Of a stretch of 64,000 bases of DNA, positions 861-37,211 are shown one piece after another; positions within the stretch are counted from its first letter, which is position 1, and the number at the start of each line of letters is the position of its first letter. The notes beneath the pieces were generated by a model. The model did no database searches. It was not told where the DNA came from and saw only the letters and a list, made by a program, of their open reading frames with translations. This DNA is from an uncultured Gammaproteobacteria bacterium. Its GTDB lineage: Bacteria; Patescibacteriota; Microgenomatia; CAZETR01; Amesbacteraceae. The position numbers and the translations under genes were made by a program. The stretch is from contig CAYITQ010000001.1 in the NCBI GenBank assembly GCA_964366335.1, forward strand, positions 41,336 through 105,335, written 5' to 3'.

Positions 861-1654
861 TTACCTCTGTCGTTATTCCGGTTTATAACGGTAGAAAATA
901 TTTAGAGGATAATCTGCTATTTGTAAATAAACTCGGTGTCAATGAGATTGTGATAGTGGACGATGCGTCCACTGACGGATCCGCAGAATTTATCGCAAAA
1001 AACTATCCAAATATTAAATTAATAAAACACGATGCAAATAAGCGTTTTCCCATTTCAGTCAATGACGGATTCAAAAATGCCACAGGTGATATTGTGTTTT
1101 TGTTAAATCAGGACCTGAAGCCCCATAGAGATTTGGTAAAGAATGCTCTGAGACATTTTAAAGACGATTGTATATTTGCTGTCACATTCAATGAGGGTGA
1201 TCATTCATGGGCGGATGGCAAATGGATAAGCGGAATGCTCGAATTTACAAACGGAAAGCTGGATGATAAGTTACACGAATCTCTTTGGCCTTCGGGGGGG
1301 GGGAGTGCTATCCGCCGTGATGTCTGGAATAAACTTGGAGGCTTTGACCCGATATTTACCCCAGGTTATTTCGAAGATTTGGATTTGGGACTTAGAGCAT
1401 CAAAGGCGGGGTATAAAAATATCTGGGATCCAAGATGCACGGTAACACATTTGGTCTCGGGAACTTTTCCAAAAGTGTTCACTCCGAAGAAACTTCAATA
1501 TATCAAAGAGCGGAATTATCTGATAGCTGTCTGGAAGAATATTGATTTAAAACTCTGGCCAGCACATATATTTAGTTTAATTAAACGAATTATCCGTGGA
1601 CCTGGTTATTTAGTTCCTGTAGTATGGGCTTTATGGAAAAGATTAGCGTCATAA
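857..1654 (+). CDS. family 2 glycosyltransferase (GT2)
   Basis: N-terminal VVIPVYNGRKYLEDNL...IVIVDDASTDGS is the GT2 Rossmann/DXD signature. ATG overlaps the upstream stop (ATGA). Contains a G10 run at 1294-1303. Confidence 0.85.
   Translation: MITSVVIPVYNGRKYLEDNLLFVNKLGVNEIVIVDDASTDGSAEFIAKNYPNIKLIKHDANKRFPISVNDGFKNATGDIVFLLNQDLKPHRDLVKNALRHFKDDCIFAVTFNEGDHSWADGKWISGMLEFTNGKLDDKLHESLWPSGGGSAIRRDVWNKLGGFDPIFTPGYFEDLDLGLRASKAGYKNIWDPRCTVTHLVSGTFPKVFTPKKLQYIKERNYLIAVWKNIDLKLWPAHIFSLIKRIIRGPGYLVPVVWALWKRLAS
1294..1303 (+). repeat. G10 homopolymeric tract inside the GT2 coding sequence (currently in-frame, encodes GGG)
   Basis: tcGGGGGGGGGGagt read directly from the sequence. Highly atypical for a ~36% GC genome. 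Confidence 0.8.
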
Positions 1655-2424
1655 TAATAAATTGGAATGTGGGGGAGTCTTTTGCGCGCTGTATTAAATC
1701 TGTCTTGGACACCAAGTATCCAAACCTAGAATTAATTTTGATCGATAATAATTCCAATAAGCCTCCCAAGATACCTAAGGATCCGAGAGTTACATATATC
1801 CAAAATGAATCTAATCTTGGCTTTCCGGCAGCGGTAAACCAAGGATTAAAGTTATTTGTAGGGGATTATGTGTTGCTACTTAATCCAGACACCCGGATAC
1901 AAAATGATTTTTTTACCAAAGCAATTGAATCTATACAATTTAATAAAAAGATCGGCATCATGGGACCCAAGTTTGTAGATCCCGATGGCACAACCCAAGG
2001 ATCGGTCTACCGTGAACCTTCAATTATTCGTACTATCCAGGAATATTGGTTTGGAAAAACAAATCTGACTGAAAAATACACACTCAATACAAATAATTTG
2101 ACGGAAGTAGACGTTGTCATTGGCGCATGTATGTTTATGTCAAAGAAAATAGTGAAGAAAGTCGGATTATTCACTGACAAAGTTTTTATTTTTTATGAAG
2201 ATTTTGATTATTGCAGACGAATCCGCAAAGCCGGATATAAAGTAATCTTTAATCCGAATATCACTATTATTCATGAACATGGCCAAAGTACCAAACAAAA
2301 TCCCCTGGCAAATGAACTTTTAATGAAAGCCTCTTTGTGGTACAACGGAATGTTAAAGCACTATATTTTGTGGTTTGTTATATGGACTTCCCAGAAAGTA
2401 AATAAAATTCTACTCAAGTCGTGA
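1633..2424 (+). CDS. family 2 glycosyltransferase (GT2)
   Basis: ISVIIINWNVGESF...LILIDNNS motif. The ORF track starts at 1624; the ATG at 1633 (MEKISVII) is the more typical GT2 N-terminus. Overlaps the upstream gene. Confidence 0.8.
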   Translation: MEKISVIIINWNVGESFARCIKSVLDTKYPNLELILIDNNSNKPPKIPKDPRVTYIQNESNLGFPAAVNQGLKLFVGDYVLLLNPDTRIQNDFFTKAIESIQFNKKIGIMGPKFVDPDGTTQGSVYREPSIIRTIQEYWFGKTNLTEKYTLNTNNLTEVDVVIGACMFMSKKIVKKVGLFTDKVFIFYEDFDYCRRIRKAGYKVIFNPNITIIHEHGQSTKQNPLANELLMKASLWYNGMLKHYILWFVIWTSQKVNKILLKS

Positions 2425-2455
2425 CATTTTGTCACAACTTGAATTGTATACAATT
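2421..2455. repeat. two perfect palindromes at the 3' end of the GT2 gene
   Basis: GTGACA-TTT-TGTCAC (2421-2435, overlapping stop TGA 2422-2424) and AATTGTATACAATT (2442-2455). Confidence 0.6.
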
Positions 2456-2490
2456 TGTAAACAACTCAATTCAAAACTTTAAATGATTTT

Positions 2491-2588
2491 CCACCTTAAG
2501 GGCGAAAAACATGAGTCATCGACAAAGTGTCGACAACTGAGATCTGACAGATAATATCAAAACAGATCAAAAGGTTTGGCCGTTGAGT
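2491..2588 (+). repeat. intergenic repeat family, copy A
   Basis: CCACCTTAAGGGCGAAAAAC...TCGACAaagTGTCGA (palindrome 2519-2533)...AGATCT (2540-2545)...ATCAAAACAGATCAAAAGGTTTGGCCGTTGAG. Aligns with copies at 5111-5211 and 5584-5617. Confidence 0.6.
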
Positions 2589-2593
2589 GATTT

Positions 2594-3265
2594 TTATAAG
2601 ACATAATCTGATTTTACCTCGTAACTAAGATAGGGAGTTGAATCTTTCTTCAAAATACAAATATCAATTTCTGGCCATCGGTTTGGTAATTTTTGAATTT
2701 CCCCAACCGACTTCCAGCTAATCTGCTTATGTAATTTCATTCTCTCTTTTTGTTCATGACTAACATCTACTCTGTAAATTGTGAACGCGTCATCAAATAA
2801 TACTTCTCCATGTGATGTTTTAACGGTTTTTAAATGTAAGGATTGAAACTTAAAATCTTTTTCGTCAAGAATGATACCAGTATTGGATTCAAAAATACGA
2901 ATTAAAGCACTTTCAATTGATTCTCCAAACCTAGGTTTTCCACTGGGCAAATTATAAAAATTGGTTGTTTCTGTGGGATGTTCTTTTATTAAAAATTCAT
3001 CACCGTAGTTACATAGAAATCCGATGAAAAACGTTTTATATCCAGTGTCCTCTATGGTCGGCAAGTCATAATCAGTAATTACTTTAATCCCCGCAGCGGT
3101 TATTAGATATTTATCAGCCTCTTTTTTCATCAGACCTTTGCTAATTAACTGTTTAAGATGAAACACAACGTTATCATCAAAATCATAGTCGACTGTTAAA
3201 ACAGAGTATTTTTGCCTGTTCTGTATAAGCAATCTTTTTAGTAATACTTTTTGAATTTCGTGCAT
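2594..3265 (-). CDS. putative transcriptional regulator: N-terminal winged-helix DNA-binding domain fused to a degenerate Nudix-like domain (NrtR-like logic, reversed domain order)
   Basis: N-terminal ~65 aa has a wHTH-like pattern (LLKRLL...VVFHLKQLISKGLMKK...YLITAAGIKV). C-terminal GKPRFGESIESALIRIFESNTGI fits the Nudix box spacing Gx5Ex7R..xE..G, but the REUxEE glutamates are replaced (RIFESN). This suggests a ligand-sensing, non-catalytic Nudix. Confidence 0.5.
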   Translation of the reverse strand: MHEIQKVLLKRLLIQNRQKYSVLTVDYDFDDNVVFHLKQLISKGLMKKEADKYLITAAGIKVITDYDLPTIEDTGYKTFFIGFLCNYGDEFLIKEHPTETTNFYNLPSGKPRFGESIESALIRIFESNTGIILDEKDFKFQSLHLKTVKTSHGEVLFDDAFTIYRVDVSHEQKERMKLHKQISWKSVGEIQKLPNRWPEIDICILKKDSTPYLSYEVKSDYVL

Positions 3266-3374
3266 ATAAAAGTACTCTGATTATAGATGATTCTTGGTGT
3301 AGTTAACTACTCTAGAGAATACGACACTTAACTGATAACCTTCCTATAAATACTGAGGGGAGGTGATTTAATAT
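3266..3374. promoter_or_regulatory. divergent promoter/operator region between the regulator and VOC genes
   Basis: Perfect 12-bp palindrome GTAGTTAACTAC at 3299-3310. Minus-strand TATAAT (complement of 3280-3285) lies 14 nt from the regulator start codon. Plus-strand TATAAAT at 3345-3351 and a strong SD GGGGAGGTGA at 3357-3366 lie 8 nt before the ATG at 3375. Confidence 0.5.
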
Positions 3375-3743
3375 ATGTTCAATAAACTATTTGCAGTTTG
3401 CCTATTAGTAGCAGATTTCGAGCGTTCTCTGACTTTTTACAGGGATGCTGTTGGTTTGGAGGTAAATTCCACTGATGGCGAATTCGCAGATTTCAAATTG
3501 GAAGGAACCTCTCTGGCTATATTCAGCCGAAAAACAGCCATTGCAATGTTCCCAGCAAAGAATATGGGGAAAACTGGTGGCGCTGTATATGGATTTCAAG
3601 TTTCTAATGTAGCCAAAACTTGCGAAGCATTAAAAGTTAAGAATGTTGAAATCTTTGAAGGCCCAAAAACAACCACGTGGGGACAAACTGTGGCATACTT
3701 TAAGGACCCAGATGGTAATATATGGGAGGTCTCAGGAAAATAA
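3375..3743 (+). CDS. VOC family protein (glyoxalase/bleomycin-resistance/dioxygenase fold)
   Basis: 122 aa. Paired beta-alpha-beta-beta-beta module signature: FERSLTFYRDAVGLEV ... KDPDGNIWEV. Strong SD upstream. Confidence 0.75.
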   Translation: MFNKLFAVCLLVADFERSLTFYRDAVGLEVNSTDGEFADFKLEGTSLAIFSRKTAIAMFPAKNMGKTGGAVYGFQVSNVAKTCEALKVKNVEIFEGPKTTTWGQTVAYFKDPDGNIWEVSGK

Positions 3744-3744
3744 T

Positions 3745-4125
3745 ATGAATTATAAAGGTGTGATAATCGAAGAGAGTCTTGTAAGCAAGAAGTTGCTTAA
3801 ATTATGCCAAATAATTTCGACTCGAGTTGCCAACGATGACGATCCAAAAACCAATGCGGGTGAACCTAAATGGACTTTACATCAAGTGGAAGTAACAGAG
3901 CAAAATATCGGTGAAGTTGTTAGTCAATTAGGTAAAAATCTTAAACTTCCTAATTGGTGGGCAGATTTATCTTTAGAGGACGAAGTTTTTATAGTTTTCC
4001 ACAACAAAATATTTAAAGGTGGAAATTCTGATCTAGATTTTCGAAAGCATGTAATAAATTACGCCCGTTCCTTAAACCTACCAGATGGACAGATACCATT
4101 AGGTGGTTCTTATGAAGTTAACTAA
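3745..4125 (+). CDS. hypothetical protein
   Basis: ATG at 3745, 2 nt after the VOC stop, preceded by GGAGG. The longer ORF-track call (3643) would overlap the VOC gene. No recognisable motif. Confidence 0.5.
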   Translation: MNYKGVIIEESLVSKKLLKLCQIISTRVANDDDPKTNAGEPKWTLHQVEVTEQNIGEVVSQLGKNLKLPNWWADLSLEDEVFIVFHNKIFKGGNSDLDFRKHVINYARSLNLPDGQIPLGGSYEVN

Positions 4126-5080
4126 GATAAAAATTATTGAGTTGGTGCCATCGGCATCGTTTAATTTTGATGCTACTTTTCATAAACCAGATCACTTTAC
4201 GTCTGGTGATAATCTGTGGGAATCTGGAACGCGTTGGCAGACATGGATATGGAAAGAAAAGTGTCTTGGTATTCGGTTTAAAAATATCGGATCTACTTTA
4301 AATCCAAAAATTGAAATTAGTATTTATTCAGAAGAAAAACTGGACAATGCATTTATTAATGATTTTTTTGATGAAGTCAAATATAGATACAACCTGGAGC
4401 TAGATTTAACATCGTTTTATAAAGAATTTGAAAGCGATAAAATCCTTGGACCCATTATTAAAAAGTGGCAAGGGATGAAACCTGGACACCCCAGTTCCTT
4501 ATACGAATATCTCCTTATCGGAATCGTCCTACAAAATGCAACTGTTAGAAGATCTGTTCAAATGTTTAAGGCACTTCTTGAAAATTATGGAACCGAACTA
4601 GAATTTGATGGTAAAAAACTTTGGTGTTTCTTTAAGCCAGGTAGATTGCAAAAAATAACGGAGGAAGAATTAAGAGTATTAAAGCTTGGATACCGTGCCA
4701 AATCAATAAAGAGGATAGACGATTATTTCGCTCAAGGTTTAATGGATGAAATGGAACTTAGAAAAAAAGATAGAGAAACTCAAATGAATGAGTTATTAAA
4801 ACTATATGGCGTTGGACCAGCAACTGTGTGGTATCTGCTTTTTGATGTATTTCATCATTGGGATTTTTTTAACCATGTTTCTCCTTGGGAACAAAAGATT
4901 TATTCTAAAGTATTTTTTGATGTTGATCCCGAAAATCCTGTACCTGTTGCAAAAATTCTCAAACATTTTGATAGATTCGGGAAATATAAACAGCTTGCTG
5001 TGCACTATATCTGGGAAGATCTGTGGTGGAAAAGACAAAACGAGAGTATCCCTTGGTTGGAAAAACAAATCAGAATATAG
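4112..5080 (+). CDS. HhH-GPD superfamily DNA glycosylase (AlkA/Ogg-like)
   Basis: LYEYLLIGIVLQNATVRRSVQMFKALLENYG (HhH-GPD core helix) followed by the LLKLYGVGPATVWYLLFDVF helix-hairpin-helix and Gly/Pro loop with a following Asp, laid out as in AlkA. N-terminal mixed alpha/beta domain as in AlkA/OGG1. Confidence 0.7.
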   Translation: MKLTKIKIIELVPSASFNFDATFHKPDHFTSGDNLWESGTRWQTWIWKEKCLGIRFKNIGSTLNPKIEISIYSEEKLDNAFINDFFDEVKYRYNLELDLTSFYKEFESDKILGPIIKKWQGMKPGHPSSLYEYLLIGIVLQNATVRRSVQMFKALLENYGTELEFDGKKLWCFFKPGRLQKITEEELRVLKLGYRAKSIKRIDDYFAQGLMDEMELRKKDRETQMNELLKLYGVGPATVWYLLFDVFHHWDFFNHVSPWEQKIYSKVFFDVDPENPVPVAKILKHFDRFGKYKQLAVHYIWEDLWWKRQNESIPWLEKQIRI

Positions 5081-5110
5081 ATGTTTTCACCTCAGAAGTG
5101 GAAAGTATGA

Positions 5111-5211
5111 ACCGTCGACAAGATGTCGACAGTCCAGATCTAGTGAATACTATCAAAGTAGATCAAAAAGGTGTGGCCTTTGAATTTACGCTTCACCTGA
5201 AAGGTGGAAAC
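5111..5211 (+). repeat. intergenic repeat family, copy B
   Basis: CGTCGACAagaTGTCGACA (palindrome 5115-5129)...AGATCT (5136-5141)...ATCAAAGTAGATCAAAAAGGTGTGGCCTTTGAA...CACCTGAAAGGTGGAAAC. Same modules as copy A, partly reordered. Confidence 0.6.
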
Positions 5212-5220
5212 TGTTGAATT

Positions 5221-5249
5221 GTTCCATCCCCGAGGTGGAACTTTGGTTT
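5221..5249 (+). terminator. putative intrinsic terminator downstream of the glycosylase gene
   Basis: GTTCCA (5221-5226), 9-nt loop, TGGAAC (5236-5241), followed by TTTGGTTT. Confidence 0.45.
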
Positions 5250-5293
5250 ACAAATTAGACTATTAACTAAGTTAAGAATAAAATGGGTCACAC

Positions 5294-5578
5294 ATGGAAA
5301 TAAGGAGATTACCGTCTTCACTTTTAGAAGGAAAGTTCTTACATTGCCAGCCGGTCGAAGATGGTCCGATTATAGAGGCGCCGATTGTTTCGTCTGAAGA
5401 AGGATCAACGCCGGTATTTAATGTTGTAATCGTTTGCCCAGTGAGACGGCCTTCAAGTAATTGCGCATTGAGGATGGTAGCAGGGAGTCAAGACGTTAAA
5501 TGTCAATATTGGGAAGGTGATTCTTGTGGTCAATATCAAATAGTTGGACCAAAAATGGATAGAAAGTCAGAATATTGA
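5294..5578 (+). CDS. hypothetical small Cys-rich protein (94 aa). Coding status uncertain; could instead be a noncoding element.
   Basis: The only ORF of at least 60 aa in 5217-5623. Locally GC-richer than the surroundings. No SD. Preceded by a perfect palindrome TTAACTaAGTTAA (5263-5275). Bounded by repeat copies B and C. Confidence 0.25.
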   Translation: MEIRRLPSSLLEGKFLHCQPVEDGPIIEAPIVSSEEGSTPVFNVVIVCPVRRPSSNCALRMVAGSQDVKCQYWEGDSCGQYQIVGPKMDRKSEY

Positions 5579-5583
5579 ATGGT

Positions 5584-5617
5584 ATCAAAACAGATCAAAA
5601 GGGCGTGGCCTTTTGAG
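5584..5617 (+). repeat. intergenic repeat family, copy C (core only). Hairpin with bidirectional terminator character.
   Basis: ATCAAAACAGATCAAAAGGGCGTGGCCTTTTGAG. AAAAGG/CCTTTT stem with a 6-nt loop, A-run on the left and T-run on the right. Sits between convergent genes. Confidence 0.5.
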
Positions 5618-5623
5618 CCGGGA

Positions 5624-6487
5624 CTAAAATTCTCTGATCAGCTGGGGTAAGACTTGGATATAGGATTTGACCAGGTCCCATTTGCCCCAGACAGACCAGG
5701 CTGGGATGCGGATGGCACAGCCAAAGAGCAAGACGAGTTTTAACAAAAATTGTTCAAGAGGGGACTTATATTTTTTGAATAGATATAGATAACCTTTCAT
5801 TTCACCGATAAACATTCCCGCTTTAGTGCCAATGCTTTTGCCCTGGAGGTGAACACATTTTGCATCGGGATAATAGAAAATTCCGAAATTGTTTTTTGAC
5901 ATTCTATACATCCACTCGGTTTCCTCACCGTACATATAGAAATTCTCATCAAAACCACCAGTTTTTTCGTACACTATGCGCTTGAGCATTGTAAATGCCC
6001 CCATTACCCAATCTACCTTCTGGGTTTTTTGAAATCTGGATAAATCGCGGACATGGATAGAATCTATATACTTGCGAATGATTGGGAAGTTGTCCACAAA
6101 GACTTGAAACTGAAAAATTCTCCGCAGAGTCGGGAAATAACCCCAAGATGGTTGAATAGACAGGTCTTCATTGAGCAACTGACAACCCAGGACATCATAG
6201 TCCTGGGCATAACACTTGGCTAGAGTATCGGGATAGACATAGGCATCACTATTTAATAACAAAATCTTGTCACCTTTGGCAATTTTCATACCTTGATTGT
6301 TGTTGGCACCAAAACCCAATGGTTTTTTGTTATTGACGATTTTTACACCCGAAAAATTAAATTTGTCTTTTGGTGTGTTGTTCACCAGTATTATTTCCAG
6401 ATTGATATCTCGGGACTTGAGCACACACTCCACACATTTCTTGGTAATTTCAGGGGTATTGTGGTTTATAATGATTACAGATAGCAT
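5624..6487 (-). CDS. family 2 glycosyltransferase (GT2)
   Basis: MLSVIIINHNTPEITKKCVECVLKS...LVNNTP. The start codon abuts the divergent gene start (CATATG at 6485-6490). Confidence 0.85.
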   Translation of the reverse strand: MLSVIIINHNTPEITKKCVECVLKSRDINLEIILVNNTPKDKFNFSGVKIVNNKKPLGFGANNNQGMKIAKGDKILLLNSDAYVYPDTLAKCYAQDYDVLGCQLLNEDLSIQPSWGYFPTLRRIFQFQVFVDNFPIIRKYIDSIHVRDLSRFQKTQKVDWVMGAFTMLKRIVYEKTGGFDENFYMYGEETEWMYRMSKNNFGIFYYPDAKCVHLQGKSIGTKAGMFIGEMKGYLYLFKKYKSPLEQFLLKLVLLFGCAIRIPAWSVWGKWDLVKSYIQVLPQLIREF

Positions 6488-8041: not shown

Positions 8042-9258
8042 TTCGTAAATTACTTATATTTTCGGTAGTGATTATATTATTTGTCTGGCGGATTTTTCTT
8101 TCGGTCAACGCCAAGCATGGCGACATGTACAATAATATTAGCTGGGGAAGGGTAGCCTACAAACAGGAAGGTCTGGCCGGATATTATGAATTACCCAAAG
8201 AGGTCTGGTCTCACAGCCGGCCCAACCAGCCACCTGGTAGCATTTGGCTTCATCTTGCATCAGAAAATATTTATTACTCAACTGATAAACTGATAAACTG
8301 GCTAAACGGTAAACTACCGGTGTTTCCCTCAACGCTGGTTTGGTTTTGGCAGGATCATGGTGAGGTTATCTCGATCAAAATATTTTCAATATTAGCTGAC
8401 TTTGCGATAGCCCTTTTATTGTATAAAGCCGGCGGAAAAGGATTGGCTTTGATTTACCTGGTTAGTCCACCCATGTGGTACAACTCAAGCTACTGGGGCC
8501 AGACGGATCCGATTGTAGCGGCCTTAGCACTCTGGTCAATATACTTTCTGATCAAGGGAAAACTAGCCAGATCCGGCATACTTCTCGGACTTTCTTTGAT
8601 TACCAAGGCTTCGTGGGCGCCACTAACACTCTTCTATTTAATTTATTTTTGTCAAAATTTTCCCAGAAAAGTCTATAATTTGGTATTTATACCAGTAACG
8701 GCTATTTTGACTGCTTGGCCGTTTCACCCACAAACAGATCTCGTTTTTTGGCTGTACGATTTGTTTGTGACCAGAATACTGCCGGGAGAAACTGCTTTAG
8801 CTACCGTGGGTGCTTTTAATCTACATCACATAATCTGGGGTCAGATGGTCAACCATTGGTTTTCGACTATTTTAGCCATGATTATCTTAATTCCCTTAAT
8901 TATATATATGGCCATTAATTTGTTTCGGAAATCCGACCCCTTGAGACTTATTTATTGGCTGGCTCTCTTATTTTGGGCTTTCTTTTTGTTTAATACCAAA
9001 ATGCACGAACGCTACCTTTATCCCATTTTTCCGTTATTATCTTTTTTATTGGTTTTGAAACCGACTATAAAATTATTGATAATATACGTGCTAATCTCGC
9101 TGGTATTTTTGTTTAATATGTACTACATGTGGTATGCGCCCAATATCCCATGGTTGATGTCGCTGTATACACCCGAAGTTCTAGATTTCGTGAGTTTGGT
9201 TAATATTATTTTGTTTATCGCCTTTTTTAAGCTAAAATCAAGTTATGTTCAAGACTAA
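8038..9258 (+). CDS. polytopic membrane protein, probable GT-C-like glycosyltransferase
   Basis: 406 aa, many TM helices. HGDMYNNISWG loop near the N-terminus. Translationally coupled (ATGA) to the upstream PMT-like gene. Confidence 0.45.
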   Translation: MIRKLLIFSVVIILFVWRIFLSVNAKHGDMYNNISWGRVAYKQEGLAGYYELPKEVWSHSRPNQPPGSIWLHLASENIYYSTDKLINWLNGKLPVFPSTLVWFWQDHGEVISIKIFSILADFAIALLLYKAGGKGLALIYLVSPPMWYNSSYWGQTDPIVAALALWSIYFLIKGKLARSGILLGLSLITKASWAPLTLFYLIYFCQNFPRKVYNLVFIPVTAILTAWPFHPQTDLVFWLYDLFVTRILPGETALATVGAFNLHHIIWGQMVNHWFSTILAMIILIPLIIYMAINLFRKSDPLRLIYWLALLFWAFFLFNTKMHERYLYPIFPLLSFLLVLKPTIKLLIIYVLISLVFLFNMYYMWYAPNIPWLMSLYTPEVLDFVSLVNIILFIAFFKLKSSYVQD

Positions 9259-10828
9259 CTGGATAGTGGTAGGATTTATGGTCTTGGGATTTGTGCTTCG
9301 AACAGTTTGGCTTGCTAAATATCCGGCTGGTTTCACCCCGGACGAGGCTGCCTTTGGCTACAATGCCTATTCAATCTTGCAAACAGGTAAGGATGAGTGG
9401 GGAACTCCTTGGTGGCAATTGTTTTCCTCAAATATGCGCTCTTTTGGCGATTACAAGCTTCCCCTCTATACTTTCTTGGCCATTCCTAGTATAAAACTGT
9501 TTGGTTTAAATGAATTTGCCACCAGACTTCCAAATGCGATTATTGGGACATTGGCCATAGGGGCGATATATTTATTGACAAAGAGATTGTCCGCTGCCGT
9601 AATTCTGACACTCTCGCCCTGGGCAATTAGTATGTCCCGGGGGGCATTTGAAGCCAATCTCGCCACCTTGTTTTTGCCTCTGGGAATATATTTATTTTTG
9701 AGAAACAAATATTGGCTCAGCGCAATTATTTTTGCTTTGAGCTTTTATTCATATCATTCAGCAAGACTCGTGACACCAATAATCATTCTCATTCTGGTTT
9801 TGTATAAAAAAGTGAATAAAGAAGTATTACTACCAAGTTTACTTTTGGGTATTTTGTTAATTCCGGGATTATTCTCGATGGTGTCTCGAGGTAGTGCCCG
9901 GACGGCCGATGTCAGTATCATCAGTCCGACTGGTGGTTGGAGTGCAGTAGCCGATCGGAGATTTGAAGCCATTGTTGTTGGACTTCCGGATTCTGTCAGC
10001 AGATTCTTTTCCAACAAACCAATTTATGTAGTATCTGCTTTTGTCAAAAATTATTTGTCATATTGGTCACCACAATTCTGGTTTACTAGTGGGGCTGGCG
10101 AAGCTACTTATGGCATGATTACCGGCCGCGGGACATTTTATTATGTTGAAATCATATTCTTGGCTGGATTTTTAATATTATTTATCCGAAACCCCAATAA
10201 AGAATATTTGTTTATCCTGTTACTGGCAGCTATCAGCTTTGTTCCATCAGCTTTATCCAAAGGTCCTGGATATGCTGCCAACCGTGCCGTCATCGCCCTG
10301 CCATTTTTAATTATGATGCTCTCTCTGGGATCAGAATTTATATTAAAGAAAAAATCCTTAATTATTCTAACTTCTATCTTCTACCTTCTATCTTCCGTAT
10401 ATTTTATAGAGGACTACCTCTACCATGCACCCAAAAATAGTGCTAGGTCAATGAATTATGGCTGGACGGATTTGATGCCGAGGCTAATGCCAATAGCCAG
10501 TAGATTTGAAGACGTCAGATTTAGCAGATCACTTTCCGAGCCACATATATTTCTGGCTTTTTATACCAAGGCCGATCCAAAAGTTTATCAGCAGTATTCT
10601 TCGGGGTGGCTGGAATTTGAAAAGAAGGGCCTGAAATTTCTGGATCAATATGATGGTTATTATTTGGAAAAATTCCGCTTTGGGGATTTGAAGTATGGAG
10701 AACAGGTAACTAAACCAACCTTATATATAGGTAGACCGGATGAATTTCCGGACGATACCGGTTACTATATCAAAACGTTTTATCCGGACGGAACGCCAGA
10801 CATGATGGTAGCAGAAAAACAACCATGA
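9245..10828 (+). CDS. GT-C fold membrane glycosyltransferase, PMT/ArnT-like
   Basis: FTPDEAAFGYNAYSILQTGKDEWG DE motif. Multi-TM core plus C-terminal domain. Paralog of 6488, 12351, 14518 and 16020. Confidence 0.8.
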   Translation: MFKTNWIVVGFMVLGFVLRTVWLAKYPAGFTPDEAAFGYNAYSILQTGKDEWGTPWWQLFSSNMRSFGDYKLPLYTFLAIPSIKLFGLNEFATRLPNAIIGTLAIGAIYLLTKRLSAAVILTLSPWAISMSRGAFEANLATLFLPLGIYLFLRNKYWLSAIIFALSFYSYHSARLVTPIIILILVLYKKVNKEVLLPSLLLGILLIPGLFSMVSRGSARTADVSIISPTGGWSAVADRRFEAIVVGLPDSVSRFFSNKPIYVVSAFVKNYLSYWSPQFWFTSGAGEATYGMITGRGTFYYVEIIFLAGFLILFIRNPNKEYLFILLLAAISFVPSALSKGPGYAANRAVIALPFLIMMLSLGSEFILKKKSLIILTSIFYLLSSVYFIEDYLYHAPKNSARSMNYGWTDLMPRLMPIASRFEDVRFSRSLSEPHIFLAFYTKADPKVYQQYSSGWLEFEKKGLKFLDQYDGYYLEKFRFGDLKYGEQVTKPTLYIGRPDEFPDDTGYYIKTFYPDGTPDMMVAEKQP

Positions 10829-12372: not shown

Positions 12373-13841
12373 TAATAATTATTCTTGTGACCGGCATCGT
12401 TTGGAGATTGCCGTATTTTGCACCCTCTAGTTTCAATTGGGATGAAGTTTCTCTCGGATATAATTCTTATTCAATGTTGAAGTCTGGAGCGGATGAATGG
12501 GGTATAAAAATGCCAACAATATTTCGAGCTTATGGTGATTACAAGCTTCCGGTATATGTCTACATGACCACACTCTGGCCGCAATTCCCCCGCACTACAT
12601 CTATCATTGCAGGCGTACTGACAATGCTGATTTCCTATTTATTGGTCCGAAAAATATTTAATAAAGAAACTGCGCTTGTTACTTTGGCACTTGTCACTCT
12701 GTCACCCTGGACAGTCATGCTCTCTCGTTTGGCTCTCGAGGCAAACTTAGCCGTTTTATTTATTTCCTTGGGCATGCTCTGCTTGGTCTCCAAAAAACAC
12801 CTCTGGTCAATAATCTTTTTTGGCATCTCGGTTTGGACTTACAACAGTGCGCGAGTATTTACTCCTTTATTTTTAGCTTGTTATTTAATCATAAACAAAA
12901 ATTATAAAAAGTTTACTTCTATGAACTATATACTATTAATTATTTTCTTTTTGCCGATGATATATCAATTATTAAACTCCACAGGTCAAGCACGATACAG
13001 TAAATTGTCACTTATAGACGACGGAGCTATAGGCAAAATAAATAAATTACAAACAACTCAATGGGGAGGACGCATGGTTTACAACAAAGCCACTTATTTT
13101 GCAGCCGCTTTTGCCAAAAATTATGTATCATATTTATCACCCAGTTTTTTGTTTATCAAAGGTGGCGATCACTATCAATTCAGCGTCCAAAATTATGGTC
13201 TTTTGTATCTAATATGTCTGCCTTTTTATTATATTGGATTAACAAAAGTTTTTAATAATAAATTACTTTTATTGTGGCTCTTAATAGCTCCAATCGCAGG
13301 AAGTATTACCCGTGATAGTCCTCACACCCTTCGAGCCATCACAATGCTGCCATTGCCAATGATACTTACCGCTCTTGGTGTAGTATCTATATTAAAAAAA
13401 TATTATTTAGTAATATTGCCAATTATTATATTATCTTCGATAAACTATCAACTAGCTACTAACTCCTATCTCCTAAACTACTCATGGTCTTGGCAATATG
13501 GCTATAAAGAAGTAGTTCAATTAATCAAACAAGACTACGATAAATACGATCAGATTATTTTTACCAAAAAATATGGTGAACCGCATGAATTTGTAGCCTT
13601 TTATTGGCCCTGGGATCCGGCTGATTTTGCCAAAAGTAAATCCTGGGACTATCATGCCAATTGGTATTGGGTCAACGAACTGGATAAAATTAAATTTGTA
13701 AATGATTGGGAAATGAAATCATATGTATATAAACCCAAGACACTAATTATCGCCAGTCCGGAAAATATTCCCGCGGGATCCGAAATCAAGCGAATTAATT
13801 TCCTAGACGGCAAACCCGCTTTTATAATTAAAGAATTATGA
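12351..13841 (+). CDS. GT-C fold membrane glycosyltransferase, PMT/ArnT-like
   Basis: FNWDEVSLGYNSYSMLKSGADEWG DE motif. Start is TTG at 12351 (alternative GTG at 12357). Overlaps the upstream gene. Confidence 0.75.
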   Translation: MDVEKILIIIILVTGIVWRLPYFAPSSFNWDEVSLGYNSYSMLKSGADEWGIKMPTIFRAYGDYKLPVYVYMTTLWPQFPRTTSIIAGVLTMLISYLLVRKIFNKETALVTLALVTLSPWTVMLSRLALEANLAVLFISLGMLCLVSKKHLWSIIFFGISVWTYNSARVFTPLFLACYLIINKNYKKFTSMNYILLIIFFLPMIYQLLNSTGQARYSKLSLIDDGAIGKINKLQTTQWGGRMVYNKATYFAAAFAKNYVSYLSPSFLFIKGGDHYQFSVQNYGLLYLICLPFYYIGLTKVFNNKLLLLWLLIAPIAGSITRDSPHTLRAITMLPLPMILTALGVVSILKKYYLVILPIIILSSINYQLATNSYLLNYSWSWQYGYKEVVQLIKQDYDKYDQIIFTKKYGEPHEFVAFYWPWDPADFAKSKSWDYHANWYWVNELDKIKFVNDWEMKSYVYKPKTLIIASPENIPAGSEIKRINFLDGKPAFIIKEL

Positions 13842-14443
13842 TAGTATTTATTGATGAGTCTGGGATTCATAAGCAAATAGGTCATTCGAGTGCTTCGGTA
13901 GTTTACGTTTGGACTCAGGATTTGGATAAATTTGAAAAAGGAATTGAGAGTTTAAATCAAAAGTTGAAAATAAATTATTTTCATTGGACTGAAAGTAGTT
14001 GGGAATTAAAAGAAAAATTTTTAGTCGGTGTCAGAAAATTAGATTTTCTATTTAAAGTTATCGTTTTTGATAACCCCATTAAATATCAGCAAATAATCGA
14101 GGTGGTCTTTAAGCATTTATTGGTGGAAAATGTGGATAAAGTATTCATTGACGGCAAAAAACCCGAATGGTATGAACGGAAACTAAAAAAAGTTTTAAGG
14201 GATATGGGAAACTCGGTTAAAAAACTGAAGACGATAAGAAATGAGTCGGCACATCCAGGAATCCAATTGGCAGATGCAATTGCTGGTTTATATAGGTACC
14301 AAGCCGATAATCCAAATTCTAAAATTGCGTCGGAGTTAGTGAAGAAATTAAATAAAAATGAAGTAATGTCAAGTAGCTTTAATGCCGATAATTATTTTAC
14401 CAAGAAAAACCCCGACAAAAGCCGGGGTCAGCGTCCCGGATAG
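13838..14443 (+). CDS. DUF3800-like protein (predicted RNase-H-like fold, soluble)
   Basis: N-terminal MIVFIDESGI and C-terminal HPGIQLADAIAGLY motifs match the DUF3800 pattern (YIDESG ... QLADxxAG). No TM segments. ATGA-coupled to the upstream PMT gene. Confidence 0.5.
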   Translation: MIVFIDESGIHKQIGHSSASVVYVWTQDLDKFEKGIESLNQKLKINYFHWTESSWELKEKFLVGVRKLDFLFKVIVFDNPIKYQQIIEVVFKHLLVENVDKVFIDGKKPEWYERKLKKVLRDMGNSVKKLKTIRNESAHPGIQLADAIAGLYRYQADNPNSKIASELVKKLNKNEVMSSSFNADNYFTKKNPDKSRGQRPG

Positions 14444-14517
14444 TTCACCATTGGTGTACTTTTCCACACGGGAATTTGTCACCGGTAGCTAGTTATGAGA
14501 TTATTATACGATAACTT

Positions 14518-32446: not shown

Positions 32447-34114
32447 ATGCATAAATATCGCTTGGCACTTACGAGCTCAATATTGATTATTTTGGTTTCC
32501 TTAATTTCATTTTGGAAAATAAATCAGATTTTTTTCCAACAAGACGAATGGCTTGGGCTAGGTGGGGCAATTTATAGACAAGAAACCTTAGGGACACTAG
32601 GAAGTATTTTCCAAGTTTTTAATTTTCAAAATAGAAATGAGTCTACTCGTTTTTTACCAATAACTTCAATAGCAAATCACTTTCTTTACAATAATTTTAG
32701 ATTAAATACTGGTGCTTATGGATTATTATCCCTGACGATTGTCATAATCTGCGCACTTTTGATTAATAGCATCGTTTACAAATTGACAAACTCCCATTTG
32801 ATTTCCACGATCACCTCTCTTTTATGGATAACCAATAATTTAGCTTATCAAGCCATTACTTGGATCGGTACTATGGTGCCTTCATTGCTTACAGTGCTGT
32901 TTTTTCTCTTAGGTTTATATTTTTTACTGGTTTATAACAAAAAAAAGAAAAGTTATTTATATGTGGTATCTATCATTTGTGTTACGCTATCTTTATTTTC
33001 CAAAGAATCCAGTGTTTTTTATTTAATAACCTATTCAATGGTCATATGCTTTTTCTTTAAAGAGGGATTTAACAAATTTAAAAAAATAAAACTAGTTGTA
33101 TTACTTTTTATTCCATTATTTATAGGTTTAATCTTTCCAAGGTTACTTTTCTCCCTATATAACCAAAATAATTTTTCCCCGTCAGTAGCCTCTGCCAATA
33201 AAGTAGAGATCGTCTATAACTTTTTCTTAATTCCTGCTAAGAGTTTGTTCCATGTCTACTTTCCTCAAAAAAAGATTTATGAGCTAACATATTTAGCCAA
33301 CAACATTCATTATTCAGCTCAAACAAATGGTTTTGTGGTGGAGAGTATTATCACAGACGCACTATCTTTGTTAATTGCTTTTTATTTTATGCTAATAATT
33401 TTTATTGTTATTTTATTGACTAAAATCGAACATCGGAAAATTATCCTTTTTTCTTTAATATCTTTTTTTGCTTCAACTTTACCATTTGTAATTTTTAAAA
33501 ACGATGCAGCTGTTTTAGAAAACAGATTTTATATTTTTCTTGCACTTTGGGCAAGTTTACTTTTAAGCTCAATTATTTTTGCCCTTTTTTCCAGATTTGG
33601 AAAATTCAGAAACATATTAATGATATCGGTATTGGGACCGATTATTTTTTATTATGTTTCTGGCATACATAAATCTCTGGCCCAGGATATATTAGTGGGC
33701 AACTATAGAAAAGATATTATAAATACAGTTTCAGAGATTAAATCAGAGCTTAAGAAAAATAATGTATTTTATTTTTATACTAATAATAACGGTTTTTACG
33801 AGTTTCAATCCGGCTTTGGGCAGACATTGGCAGTTTTTCTCTACGACAGTGGTAAGATACCCAAAGGGGTTTTGATTGATAAAGACTACTGGGATCCATC
33901 CTTTGAAGGTTTAAAAAGTTTTAATCAAGGTAAATTTGGTTATTTTATGACTTATACTAGATTAGTTGAGGCGCTTAAAAATAATAAAGATATAAACTTA
34001 GACTCGGTTTATAGTTTTTATTGGGATCCTCAAAAGCATACAGTAAAGAATGTTTCTGATGATATTAGAGAGAAGTTAAAAAAAGACACTACAAATGAAA
34101 AAACTTCTCTCTAA
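32447..34114 (+). CDS. GT-C-like polytopic membrane protein with a DE motif
   Basis: 555 aa, more than 10 TM helices. N-terminal loop NQIFFQQDEWLGLGGAIY (DE motif). Confidence 0.5.
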   Translation: MHKYRLALTSSILIILVSLISFWKINQIFFQQDEWLGLGGAIYRQETLGTLGSIFQVFNFQNRNESTRFLPITSIANHFLYNNFRLNTGAYGLLSLTIVIICALLINSIVYKLTNSHLISTITSLLWITNNLAYQAITWIGTMVPSLLTVLFFLLGLYFLLVYNKKKKSYLYVVSIICVTLSLFSKESSVFYLITYSMVICFFFKEGFNKFKKIKLVVLLFIPLFIGLIFPRLLFSLYNQNNFSPSVASANKVEIVYNFFLIPAKSLFHVYFPQKKIYELTYLANNIHYSAQTNGFVVESIITDALSLLIAFYFMLIIFIVILLTKIEHRKIILFSLISFFASTLPFVIFKNDAAVLENRFYIFLALWASLLLSSIIFALFSRFGKFRNILMISVLGPIIFYYVSGIHKSLAQDILVGNYRKDIINTVSEIKSELKKNNVFYFYTNNNGFYEFQSGFGQTLAVFLYDSGKIPKGVLIDKDYWDPSFEGLKSFNQGKFGYFMTYTRLVEALKNNKDINLDSVYSFYWDPQKHTVKNVSDDIREKLKKDTTNEKTSL

Positions 34115-37100: not shown

Positions 37101-37211
37101 CTTTTAGAATATAATAACCAAAATGATTATTACAAAGCTCTCGCAGTGAGTCTTGCTACTCTCATTTTTATCTTAGGAATGTTAATATACTTAAATAATG
37201 AAACTACCTAA
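34095..37211 (+). CDS. giant GT-C-type membrane protein (YfhO/AftD-like): multi-TM N-domain plus large extracytoplasmic C-domain plus C-terminal TM anchor
   Basis: 1038 aa. N-terminal GHDMGFPLAP loop. About 13 TM helices in the first ~450 aa. C-terminal IEFVALNQTKYL...FNSRFDPNWS...VIEYERGDKH domain shared with 37198 and 49832. Final TM helix. Confidence 0.6.
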   Translation: MKKLLSKFNVYHIEILFLLIVGLIPLLWYKVGYIGLGHDMGFPLAPVGHFLDRLYTWTDRLGPFGSNAVQVLPGVFIHGLEALLSSIGFSLLTVQKITYIFWFILPGITMYTLLRYLHPNKEDYPIRVSGSMFYMMNHYLLQAWTIAERTKFSIVAALPIVVLLIIKVLHKKESPVKNSILFALTLFFLNGGEGIPLLISLFVAVITTIITYFFLSNENFWPKAKRLLIFSFLAALFWILLSGYWLYPYFKSYSQAFGQRSDVAGGTAGAISWSQGISANTSWINLFRLRGIPDWYASPDHPYANEFFKNPLLLFLNILFPAIALISLLSPNKIKIYFLGLLLISIPLSAGSHPPLGILYDYLLVNVPGFIMFRSGFFKFGMIIWFAYAYLIAVGVKDTIVRLKQIPLVLLGGFIVSLFIYNYPFLSGVFFDYSKGKSTMVKVPDYIFEAKKELDSNKFSTRTLYLPNADIRTEYIEYDWDYFSLSELTDIMGRKSSIRNGVLARPNERDLMVGVLSEYIKFGNSNLVKLIGADRAVVQNDFISPDYEGNPLSGIKESFKKSKDFTFKNSLGKWDFYDYNKDILPQIYSPSTVTFISSDQKELSLVANMPGALDSNAFLWSDSPEDSNKKEIFSKLIIQARCADCPPVDNYQIYFATSKVLIPGTVFYPLGKFVTDARTLLAGNPITRLDINLSTSTTLISDLGSLQAKSDEKGIKVATGDLAKNLEEIKNNLEDISDPKIKKEVLKKVRFFLSFFVSYETQWAVAAQPGPIKSDLESLETELRKSVAEIEGETGYPKVEKDALLYKYSLDISQAGDYDLYLYNPSSLSDGITLNVNNRIFRARKLNSNWYKITKVPLGNTPTLIEITKTQASETRPVIFVELETGAPDLGSPNIEFVALNQTKYLVQAKGSEHFLLGFNSRFDPNWSLREISSKLANKYFVGDKRIFLKGKVIEYERGDKHVITDLVFPKSKYKLTPSFQLNGFSNGWLVDSNDANSEKTFLLEYNNQNDYYKALAVSLATLIFILGMLIYLNNETT

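Follow-up and report, generated by a model that had tools for sequence, protein, structure and literature searches.

A variable hotspot between two glycosyltransferase genes of Candidatus Amesbacteria and a probable REP-type repeat family

In the 64-kb stretch of DNA analyzed here (the window), a ~3.2-kb islet of stress and DNA-repair genes, together with three related repeats (A, B, and C), lies between the convergent glycosyltransferase genes GT2a and GT2b (Table 1). We propose, with a probability of roughly 70%, that this interval is a hotspot of gene gain and gene loss in Candidatus Amesbacteria, which here holds a mosaic, and that the repeats are REP-type copies spread by a Y1 transposase. 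The locus would then represent an ordinary variable hotspot, and the repeats a new REP-type family in CPR bacteria. The segment is not an assembly artifact, since it is identical in six independent Hainich groundwater metagenome assemblies. GC content is slightly low in the islet (0.356 vs 0.371 in the rest of the window) and 0.418 in the 94-amino-acid open reading frame ORF94. A sequence-only reading had described the islet as bracketed by repeats, which was confirmed, as the repeats are related beyond chance and confined to the islet. It had assigned everything else in the window to glycan biosynthesis, which is nearly right, the exception being positions 13838-14496, where a DUF3800 gene and its associated Rfam RNA motif lie.

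Table 1. Features of the GT2a-GT2b interval and its flanks (window coordinates)
Positions	Strand	Feature	Basis or details
1624-2424	+	GT2 glycosyltransferase GT2a, left conserved hotspot flank	Pfam Glycos_transf_2, E 4e-23
2412-2444	-	Terminator-like hairpin, 15-bp stem, overlapping GT2a stop codon	Terminator scan
2445-2484		Palindrome-rich spacer containing ACAATTTGTAAACA	Sequence reading
2485-2590	+	Repeat A, composite	Hairpin unit 2487-2510; palindrome TCGACAAAGTGTCGA 2519-2533; degenerate REP-like core 2555-2584, kernel AAAGGTTTGGCCGTT
2594-3265	-	Winged-helix and Nudix-like protein with degenerate Nudix box (GKPRFGE-x7-RIFES)	Pfam
3266-3374		Divergent promoter region with operator-like palindrome TAGTTAACTA at 3300-3309	Comparison with relatives
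3375-3743	+	VOC/glyoxalase-bleomycin-resistance family protein	Pfam PF00903, E 3.6e-17 (strong)
3745-4125	+	126-aa hypothetical gene	blastn breakpoints
4112-5080	+	HhH-GPD DNA glycosylase, Ogg/AlkA type	TIGR00588, E 8e-14; PDB 4ejy, 4e-11; PDB 3f10
5082-5187	+	Repeat B, composite	Hairpin unit 5084-5105; palindrome 5115-5129; REP-like core 5151-5185, kernel AAAGGTGTGGCCTTT 5167-5181
5192-5241	+	Two palindromic units, second dispersed family	TTCACCTGAAAGGTGGAAAC 5192-5211; GTTCCATCCCCGAGGTGGAAC 5221-5241
5294-5578	+	94-aa orphan gene (ORF94), small conserved family	Homologues
5557-5619	+	Repeat C	REP-like core 5582-5619, kernel AAGGGCGTGGCCTTT 5599-5613
5624-6487	-	GT2 glycosyltransferase GT2b, right conserved hotspot flank	Pfam

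A variable site between two conserved genes

Relatives differ in what they carry between the two glycosyltransferase genes. L045, from an Amesbacteria MAG of close synteny, matches the window in gene order to the left and right of the islet position and lacks the islet: GT2a and GT2b overlap there by ~17 nt, leaving no intergenic DNA. Other cargo occupies the site in two further relatives. L046 has one canonical core copy of the repeat family along with a 121-aa gene and a KilA-N fragment. In L047, the site holds hairpin units and a duplicated 3' fragment of GT2b as well as genes for a DUF4440 protein and an aspartic-protease-like protein. In L041 and L026, at 74-80% nucleotide identity, copies of the repeats are still found where A and C lie in the window. 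The flanks are conserved, with syntenic orthologues of GT2a in L045-L047 and orthologues of GT2b at 73-84% identity in conserved synteny. Together with the occurrence of a three-gene part of the islet in other genomic contexts (see below), these sites bear out the sequence-only reading insofar as it saw an accessory insertion between convergent GT2 genes. Traces of turnover may also be present in the window itself. The spacer at 2445-2484 is probably left over from a lost KilA-N gene, because its counterpart in L041 lies just 3' of an intact KilA-N gene. Given its orientation, the hairpin that precedes the spacer is predicted to terminate transcripts of the minus-strand regulator gene.

Relatedness of the repeats

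Repeats A and B are 69% identical over ~106 nt, with a local alignment score of 42 against a null mean of 10.4 (sd, 1.9; maximum, 21; 1000 dinucleotide shuffles). Their 5' parts without the core still score 22 (null maximum, 18), and the scores for B/C and A/C are 30 and 23 (null maxima, 18 and 15, respectively). A search of the window for the core motif ATCAAARYAGATCAAAAGG that tolerated up to 3 mismatches hit only 2556, 5152, and 5584, all on the plus strand, against 0.23 hits expected from shuffles; 3 hits were reached in none of 100 shuffles. The palindrome TCGACA-N3-TGTCGA has just two occurrences, at 2519 and 5115, and the 64-kb window holds no further copy of any of the three repeats. 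Degeneration has gone furthest in repeat A, with 3 mismatches in the kernel. The stem of A, GATCTG (2541-2546)/CAGATC (2563-2568), reads as a compensated version of that in B, GATCTA (5137-5142)/TAGATC (5159-5164).

All three repeats adjoin gene ends: A finishes 4 nt short of the winged-helix/Nudix-like gene's stop codon, B starts 2 nt past that of the glycosylase gene, and the core of C lies 4 nt past the ORF94 stop codon and 4 nt from that of GT2b, so placed that it looks like a bidirectional terminator. The positions given in the sequence-only reading held, except that C extends left to ~5557, and therefore overlaps the last 8 codons of ORF94, and that two more hairpin units come after B. 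Relatives of these units adjoin core copies at four other loci (L044, L039, L041, and L047), and B and the units at 5192-5211 and 5221-5241 together form a BIME-like mosaic. A, B, and C share one arm type and orientation, so that no two of them bracket cargo as a left-end/right-end pair. One indel has used the repeats as breakpoints: L026 carries a B/C hybrid copy and lacks the ORF94 unit, which extends from core B to core C. Several copies in the same orientation would generally be expected to serve as deletion or insertion breakpoints in this manner.

A dispersed palindromic element at stop codons

The core is a dispersed palindromic element of 40 nt, (T)ATCAAA-NN-AGATCAAAAAGGC-GTG-GCCTTTYRARGCTA, in which a 6-7-bp stem (AAAAGGC/GCCTTTT) with a GTG loop forms an imperfect palindrome whose arms begin with TAG and finish with CTA. 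Pattern scans recovered it at ~20 distinct, unrelated loci of Microgenomates-type genomes, next to tuf/fusA, alaS, proS, dnaE, and other genes. These scans required exact matches, so that invariance inside the pattern arises by construction and the family is under-sampled; conservation does, in addition, reach 8-9 nt past the pattern on each side. Of the 31 copies listed, including a few from duplicate loci, 20 are no more than 20 nt away from a stop codon, and 2 are within that distance of a start codon. The stop codon is contained within the element in 12 of the 31, the element itself often supplying the TAG stop, and both orientations are present. The scan of species-representative genomes recovered one exact-pattern match per locus, and copy number per genome looks low. 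No filled and empty site for a single core copy was found among the loci compared, and insertion was not directly observed. From their sequences, the three repeats appear to be copies of this lineage-wide REP-type element, joined in A and B to other small hairpin units. Copies would settle at stop codons, causing little damage there and being able to provide the stop codon itself, and would probably end or stabilize transcripts in both directions.

In related genomes, the core hairpin flanks IS200/RAYT-like Y1 transposase genes (PF01797) on both sides. The genes at L019 (7659-8348), L024/L034, and L035 match PF01797 (E values of 9e-13 and 6e-10) with readable HUH and Tyr motifs, and in each the stop codon lies inside the downstream core copy. 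The hairpin is also embedded in frame inside Y1 transposase genes. Different hairpins accompany a transposase paralogue and three more distant homologues (L052-L054), in each case one that matches the gene's own flanks. The enzyme would act in trans, recognizing the hairpin as single-stranded DNA, and copies may have been mobilized and spread in this way. Within the window, neither a Y1 transposase gene nor any recombinase was found, in agreement with the sequence-only reading. That reading had set a REP-like element at gene ends against mobile cargo, and the former is largely what was found, with the qualifications that the element is associated with a transposase and that two copies bound the ORF94 indel. 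Its description of the repeats as MITE-like came close to the mark.

Alternatively, the repeats could be immobile structures encoded by the host, either bidirectional intrinsic terminators or 3'-untranslated-region stabilizers, which resemble one another through selection for an optimal hairpin. This would fit their location at stop codons and between convergent genes, the terminator-like calls at 5616-5595 and 2538-2514 on the minus strand, and the folding of the composite elements well below shuffled controls (z = -3.0 to -5.3); terminator and stabilizer roles are also assigned to REPs (PMC3733652). We nonetheless consider it improbable. Some 40 nt, loop and unpaired arms included, are near-identical at nonhomologous loci of different genera. 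The stem, with 3 G-C pairs, is weak, divergent promoter regions harbor some of the copies (L014, L044, and L012), and the hairpin flanks Y1 transposase genes, sits inside them, and co-varies with them.

A portable three-gene module

The genes for the regulator, the VOC protein, and the glycosylase recur in three unrelated genomic contexts. Window positions 2594-5080, without 3735-4138, align to L048/L049, L050, and L051 at 75-87% nucleotide identity; homology ends at both stop codons, and the neighboring genes are unrelated. The winged-helix/Nudix-like gene is kept together with the module in L048-L051, and the promoter region with its operator-like palindrome is conserved in the intergenic sequences of all other module copies (L048, L050, and L051). 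The gene calls of the sequence-only reading hold overall, those of the VOC protein and the glycosylase being well supported. The winged-helix/Nudix assignment is weak (Pfam NUDIX, 21.6 bits vs a cutoff of 21.1), as are the matches to HTH_45 and to NCBIfam and PDB entries. The catalytic glutamates are absent from the sequence as read, and the protein is probably a ligand-sensing regulator of the module. The glycosylase belongs to a family that is very widespread in Microgenomates (2365 homologues), and its gene is absent from the syntenic locus of L026. Taken together, the trio may constitute a portable, self-regulated damage-response module, with a winged-helix/degenerate-Nudix regulator divergent from a VOC protein and an Ogg/AlkA-type glycosylase.

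Two small genes complete the islet, and a family search gave no match for either. The 126-aa gene is an insertion within the operon, window positions 3735-4138 standing in place of ~32 nt in the module of other genomes according to blastn breakpoints, and it is present in L026. ORF94 is a real gene, given that it has 17 homologues (12 with E values of 1e-10 or below), of which one, in L055, lies in an unrelated context. The islet would thus be a mosaic of the three-gene module, the 126-aa gene inserted in its operon, and the 94-aa orphan gene; the order of events in its assembly is one that we infer. The module may have arrived by recombination at a resident repeat copy, by exchange via the GT2 flanks, or through a since-lost integrase.

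A further possibility, close to that of host-encoded structures in its low likelihood, is that A and B are attL/attR-type scars of a module integrated by a since-lost large serine recombinase. A and B, in direct orientation, closely abut the two module ends, and in L048 and L050 a large serine recombinase gene (Resolvase, Recombinase, and Zn_ribbon_recom domains) directly follows the module. The module ends in L048, L050, and L051, however, have no core copy, and the core shared by A and B is lineage-wide, dispersed, and associated with a different enzyme. No recombinase lies in the window, and any integration must be old, since relatives at 74-80% identity still have copies where A and C lie. 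The attC-like element and the remains of site-specific integration proposed in the sequence-only reading are not upheld.

Comparison with known systems

A small-RNA interpretation, in which A and B are structured RNA genes with their own promoter (TCGACA-16-TAATAT/TACTAT) and the core hairpin as terminator, is less likely again. Promoter-like hexamers do occur at the same place in A and B, and both the compensated stem and the low folding z-scores are compatible with structured RNA. Conversely, the predicted transcript would be just ~30 nt, the 11 promoter-like sequences in the region equal the shuffle expectation of 11.0, and no Rfam match was obtained even at E values of up to 10. Conservation of the 5' modules does not extend to other members of the family, and the kernel lacks covariation within the family.

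Least probable, and already largely refuted, is the reading as an integron-type array of cassettes, each a gene with an attC-like 3' repeat: small promoter-less genes followed by hairpin-forming repeats in one orientation (the module with B, then ORF94 with C), a unit present or absent exactly between two cores, and direct copies flanking small genes at L012, L021, and L014 do recall integron cassettes and CALIN arrays, but the family consensus lacks the R''/R' core sites (RYYYAAC/GTTRRRY), conservation across genera is at the level of sequence, and not of structure as in attC sites, copies stand singly beside housekeeping genes across the genome in both orientations, and neither the window nor any locus examined has an integron integrase, the associated enzyme being a Y1 HUH transposase.

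The preferred reading, a REP-type family, has closer counterparts. REPs supply TAG stop codons, lie downstream of open reading frames and between convergent ones, occur inside open reading frames, and flank RAYT genes (PMC3733652). The REP/BIME and RAYT (TnpA-REP) "REPtrons" of E. coli, Pseudomonas, and Stenotrophomonas share with the present family a short imperfect extragenic palindrome that lies mostly just 3' of open reading frames and between convergent ones, an end TAG that is often the stop codon, occasional internal copies, mosaics with other small motifs, a PF01797 Y1 gene flanked by the same palindrome, and a separate palindrome for each transposase paralogue. Here, in contrast, the host belongs to the CPR bacteria and has a very small genome, copy number appears low compared with the tens to hundreds of classical REPs, the tag is CTAG/ATAG instead of GTAG/CGTC, and the stem is A/T rich. 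The transposase, of ~229 aa, scores 38-42 bits with the NCBIfam RAYT model (cutoff, 80), two paralogues occur on one 10-kb locus, and the gene ends in its downstream copy while holding its own hairpin in frame.

The IS200/IS605 elements and their nonautonomous derivatives (PATEs) likewise have a Y1 HUH transposase and no long terminal inverted repeats. The hairpin kernel is identical 5' and 3' of the gene on one strand, with a GTG loop in both, and many transposase homologues lie on very short contigs, as multicopy elements would give. Solo copies here differ in resembling the right end only, and no left-end/right-end pair around cargo was seen. As for the site itself, the minimal mobile elements of Neisseria, which have Correia/DUS repeats, are variable cassettes set between flanking genes that are conserved. 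The GT2a-GT2b interval is similar in that one position between conserved genes holds nothing or varying cargo from one strain to another, with small repeats present, although the repeats in the islet are of another kind.

Gain and loss of genes at the islet

Five genes lie between the convergent family-2 glycosyltransferase genes GT2a and GT2b (see the table), in a segment from the Hainich groundwater metagenome that recurs identically in six independent contigs and whose closest named relatives are Candidatus Amesbacteria. The sequence-only reading had taken this islet for accessory DNA, and the junctions read in fetched loci that encode orthologues of the right-hand GT2 gene confirm it. In an Amesbacteria MAG (L045), gene order is the same on both sides and the GT2 genes, whose adjacency in syntenic relatives had been proposed as a check, even overlap, by ~17 nt, without an islet; because of this overlap we regard L045 as an empty site. 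Other cargo occupies the same place in two further loci, namely a 121-aa gene, a 40-aa KilA-N remnant, and one canonical repeat core in L046, and a DUF4440 protein, an aspartic-protease-like protein, hairpin units of a second kind, and a duplicated 3'-end piece of the right-hand GT2 gene in L047. The site is a hotspot, and the islet is ordinary genome plasticity. The duplicated piece in L047, which lies within the variable region, suggests an insertion that rebuilt the end of the GT2 gene.

Two short Hainich contigs with 74-80% nucleotide identity carry parts of the islet. L041 shares the regulator, the first part of the VOC gene, and a repeat at the A position; to the left of that repeat lies an intact KilA-N gene. 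In L026, the 126-aa gene is followed directly by one repeat and then by the GT2 gene; the glycosylase gene, the left part of B, and the 94-aa gene are missing. This sole repeat resembles B on its left side and C on its right, and such a hybrid identifies the 400-nt unit from core B to core C as an indel with breakpoints in both cores. No pair of filled and empty sites was found for a single repeat copy. Fragments of the KilA-N gene that is intact in L041 persist in L046 and L047, and the window retains only its downstream spacer; an apparent upstream hairpin in L046 was rejected, being a fragment of KilA-N coding sequence.

The Nudix box of the first islet gene product (GKPRFGE-x7-RIFES) is missing the usual catalytic glutamates, from which we infer a sensor-regulator. 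ORF94, the 94-aa gene, is considered genuine on account of its homologues, one of which (L055) has no repeats nearby, indicating that ORF94 does not travel with the repeat element. Base composition gave no diagnostic sign of foreign origin for the islet, no tRNA or tmRNA gene that could have served as an integration target lies within the window, and a search of viral contigs returned no relatives of the glycosylase.

Features of the window and of loci fetched from other genomes and metagenomes (L numbers; window coordinates unless a locus is named)
Feature	Location	Strand	Remarks
GT2a gene	1624-2424	+	
Islet segment	2425-5623		
KilA-N downstream spacer	2445-2484		
Repeat A	2485-2590		
Terminator scan flag	2538-2514	-	
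Module limit, outer stop codon	2590-2604		
Winged-helix + Nudix-like protein	2594-3265	-	weak match, 21.6 bits vs cutoff 21.1
Palindrome TAGTTAACTA	3300-3309		around 4590 in L048, L050, L051
VOC/glyoxalase protein	3375-3743	+	E 4e-17
126-aa protein	3745-4125	+	no family match
HhH-GPD glycosylase, Ogg/AlkA type	4112-5080	+	TIGR00588 E 8e-14; PDB 4ejy 4e-11
Module limit, outer stop codon	5080-5086		
Repeat B	5082-5187		
Terminator scan flag	5221-5241	+	
94-aa protein (ORF94)	5294-5578	+	17 homologues in a 1.8-billion-protein library, 12 at E<=1e-10
Repeat C	5557-5619		left limit ~5557
Terminator scan flag	5616-5595	-	
GT2b gene	5624-6487	-	
DUF3800 region	13838-14496		
DUF3800 protein gene	13838-14443	+	
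Rfam DUF3800-II RNA motif	14426-14496	-	60.5 bits
Two very large ORFs in glycan cluster	34095-40719		1038 and 1173 aa
KilA-N gene, intact	L041, first ~750 nt (window orientation)	reverse	
KilA-N fragment	L046 9419-9541		
KilA-N fragment	L047 ~9400-9460		
Duplicated GT2 3'-end fragment	L047 9830-9897		
Serine recombinase gene	L048 6053-7375		
Serine recombinase gene	L050 6038-7378		
Y1 transposase gene with core flanks	L019 7659-8348		
In-frame hairpin	L019 8144-8167		
In-frame hairpin	L034 within 8537-9226		same gene as L024 8921-8942
Transposase gene with in-frame hairpin	L019 6-680		
In-frame hairpin, distant members	L052, L053, L054		gene 1501-~2190 in each
Hairpin doublet	L008 1288-1344		
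Hairpin doublet	L013 4753-4810		
Promoter-like ACGCACGTGCG block	L014 ~5690-5880		
Promoter-like ACGCACGTGCG block	L039 ~2170-2215		
Promoter-like ACGCACGTGCG block	L047 ~9570-9610		

A portable three-gene module

Close homologues of the glycosylase (86-89% amino acid identity) occur in L048/L049, L050, and L051, each time with counterparts of the window's regulator and VOC genes (75-87% identical in nucleotides) and with unrelated neighbors. Homology ends at the two outer stop codons. The module is portable, and its divergent promoter region between the regulator and VOC genes is conserved throughout the copies together with the palindrome TAGTTAACTA, a likely operator. The 126-aa gene, missing from these other copies, was hence inserted into the operon later. 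None of their ends carries the repeat core, so that the proposal that the repeats are scars of integration finds no support. Directly 3' of the glycosylase gene, L048 and L050, which represent different genomic contexts, both have a large serine recombinase gene with Resolvase, Recombinase, and Zn_ribbon_recom domains; this recombinase may carry the module, or it may merely insert beside it, at its 3' end.

Repeats A, B, and C belong to a dispersed hairpin family

Allowing up to 3 mismatches, a 19-nt core motif matches the window three times, always at the islet and on the plus strand (0.23 matches expected from shuffles), and both occurrences of the palindrome TCGACA-N3-TGTCGA in the window are there as well. 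The earlier description of three related repeats around the islet thus holds. A and B are 69% identical across ~106 nt, with an alignment score of 42 (shuffles: mean, 10.4; maximum, 21), and their likeness survives removal of the core. C is a shorter copy that begins within the end of ORF94, beyond the limit previously assigned to it, and two further hairpin units lie 3' of B. Compared with shuffled sequences, the composite elements all fold more stably, whichever strand is taken (z, -3.0 to -5.3). An intrinsic terminator consists of a G+C-rich stem followed by a T run; a terminator scan flagged three places at the repeats or near them, and the core stem, as a candidate, has only 3 G-C pairs and a T run that is part of the stem. 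Rfam searches at the gathering threshold and at E<=10 gave no match at the repeats. The CRISPR-like look of GTTTTCACC..GGAAAG was dismissed for want of regular spacing and of Rfam support.

The core is also dispersed in other genomes, where a search for the repeat motifs had been recommended. Exact core-derived patterns, scanned once against species-representative genomes and once against metagenome contigs, yielded ~20 distinct loci in all, whose likeness extends far beyond the search pattern: its two unspecified bases are CG in nearly all copies, and 8-9 nt are conserved outside it on each side. The family consensus is (G)TATCAAA(C/A)(T/C)AGATCAAAAAGGC-GTG-GCCTTT(T/C)(G/A)A(G/A)GCTA. A profile search of the fetched DNA added weaker copies clustered near the first ones, some of a more symmetrical form, TAGCYTTGAAAGGC-GTG-GCCTTTYRARGCTA; a scan of viral contigs returned 0 matches. 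The loci are mutually unrelated, with copies in both orientations beside tuf and fusA, alaS, proS, dnaE, gatB, and assorted small accessory genes. A stop codon is no more than 20 nt away from 20 of the 31 listed copies (which include a few duplicate loci), and a start codon is equally close to 2; 12 copies contain the stop codon, as their terminal TAG or CTA. In 25 copies, the kernel AAAGGC-GTG-GCCTTT is predicted to form 6 pairs, and TAG...CTA extends the arms; RNAalifold on these 25 copies found the kernel invariant, with no covariation within this subfamily. A second palindromic unit, (T/C)CCACC-N-GGTGG(A/G), often adjoins the core.

Since the core can be read as IK-x-DQKGVAF, we considered whether it might be the C terminus of a decayed gene. 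This was rejected, as upstream genes end in other frames (e.g., in L019) and the three codon positions are equally conserved; the KGVAF-like reading arises because the transposase gene described below has an in-frame hairpin. As a side observation, in two Collierbacteria genomes (L008 and L013) a Nudix-like coding sequence (...IKPDQKGQAFPGKAWP...) contains an in-frame doublet of a related hairpin, AAAGGCCAGGCCTTT .. AAAGGCCTGGCC, resembling insertions of REPs or of Rickettsia palindromic elements within genes. A conserved promoter-like block with an internal palindrome, TTGACA..ACGCACGTGCG..TAAAAT, recurs in the vicinity of core copies and 5' of an AAA_14/DUF4143 ATPase gene; it may be another portable unit.

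A Y1 transposase with its own hairpin in frame

A 229-aa gene whose stop codon is overlapped by the core occurs in three distinct loci (L019, L035, and L024/L029/L034). Its product matches Pfam Y1_Tnp (IS200-like, PF01797; E 9e-13 and 6e-10; 48.9 bits against a cutoff of 23) and has readable HUH (NHFHLLV) and tyrosine (RYIHQNP) motifs. The NCBIfam RAYT model NF047646 scores it below threshold (38-42 bits against a cutoff of 80), and a PDB sequence search gave no match. On both sides of the gene, L019, L034, and L035 have the same kernel with the same loop. In CPR bacteria, this is a large transposase family (6325 homologues at E<=1e-10), and many of its members come from very short contigs. 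L019 has two paralogues, the second of which, like three more distant members (L052, L053, and L054), is flanked by a different palindrome. No Y1 transposase gene lies inside the window.

The most interesting by-product of the analysis is that each such transposase gene includes an in-frame copy of its hairpin, a few codons 3' of that for the catalytic tyrosine (motif YIHxNP). The copy in L019, AAAGGCGTGGCCTTT, codes for KGVAF; with its loop flipped to CAC, the L034 copy yields KGHAF. The L019 paralogue and L052-L054 have an internal sequence that matches the flanking hairpin of the respective gene, its center sometimes inverted. At this place, 36 of the 37 homologues read have [K/Q]-G-x-[A/P/T/S]-[F/L] at the protein level, and 8 genes show the hairpin at the DNA level. 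The paired residues are specified by reverse-complement codons (AAA/TTT, CAA/TTG, GGC/GCC, GGG/CCC, GGT/ACC, and GGA/TCC), and the internal kernel covaries with the flanks across paralogues. The in-frame hairpin itself is well supported by these counts. We found no description of it in the literature searched; it is a testable oddity that could bear on the coevolution of REP families and their enzymes.

Classification of the repeats and possible routes of spread

A published survey places REPs downstream of ORFs and between convergent ORFs, with ends that supply TAG stop codons, some copies within ORFs, and others flanking transposase genes (PMC3733652); the family of the window shares these habits. 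Like REPs, for which the criterion is 20-40 nt, the core is a short, imperfect palindrome capable of forming a hairpin. Y1 transposase genes lie between the same palindromes in L019, L034, and L035 and between hairpins of their own in L052-L054, a pattern described for REP-associated transposases. On the strength of these habits and the transposase link, the repeats are filed as REP/BIME-type; they are such a family in an unusual host, with differences in tag, apparent copy number, and transposase score. The foot tetranucleotide GTAG or CGTC of REPs is replaced by CTAG/ATAG (consensus, A(C/A)(T/C)AG then ATC, with TAG kept and C or A before it). Copy number is apparently low, whereas REPs occur in many copies per genome; the 64-kb window has 3 copies, and the MAG with the empty site has a copy elsewhere (L009). 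The transposase falls below the curated RAYT cutoff and, with two paralogues on L019, is not single copy.

Among other element classes, IS200/IS605 elements likewise pair a Y1 transposase with a subterminal hairpin at either end, both on one strand; their insertion point lies 3' of a fixed tetra- or pentanucleotide, the ends are precise, and the target is not duplicated. The sequence-only suggestion of a MITE-like element came near the truth. MITEs have terminal inverted repeats and a target-site duplication and usually span 70-300 bp; here the arms are mutually inverted at 11 of 14 positions (by eye, on the consensus), and the core is only ~40 nt. Another of the sequence-only suggestions, an attC-like site, finds no support: the R''/L''...L'/R' layout is absent, RYYYAAC and GTTRRRY core sites are missing from the family consensus on either strand (a GTTGAGT end occurs in copy A and not in B or C), and no integron integrase or attI was found in the window ORFs examined or the called genes of the fetched loci.

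Copies probably spread when a Y1 transposase acts in trans on the single-stranded hairpin, and probably persist at gene ends because they are harmless there and may stop transcription in both directions. Like-oriented copies would then provide the breakpoints at which the intervening DNA is lost or gained. Arrival of the module between A and B fits a circular intermediate recombining with a resident repeat copy, although it may also have come by exchange through the conserved GT2 flanks or through an integrase since lost. A cargo-shuffling role for the hairpins is speculation. In its full form, it would make them parts of Y1-driven shuffling of small gene units in CPR genomes, with segments bounded by like-oriented hairpins (the ORF94 unit, perhaps the damage response module) excised and reinserted in trans, and with the transposase keeping its in-frame recognition hairpin for self-regulation or as the seed of new hairpin families; we consider this improbable.

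For annotation of the window, the islet is a real accessory insertion, and its repeats should be labeled as REP-type elements rather than cassette recombination sites. More widely, the results point to a REP/Y1-transposase system in ultrasmall CPR genomes, of which the literature searched held no description, and the hotspot and its repeats mark sites of small-gene gain and loss in these streamlined genomes. Elsewhere in the window, the glycan gene cluster includes two very large ORFs with no Pfam match at E<=0.001. A second nonglycan insertion in this cluster consists of a gene for a DUF3800 protein and, on the opposite strand, a DUF3800-II RNA motif.
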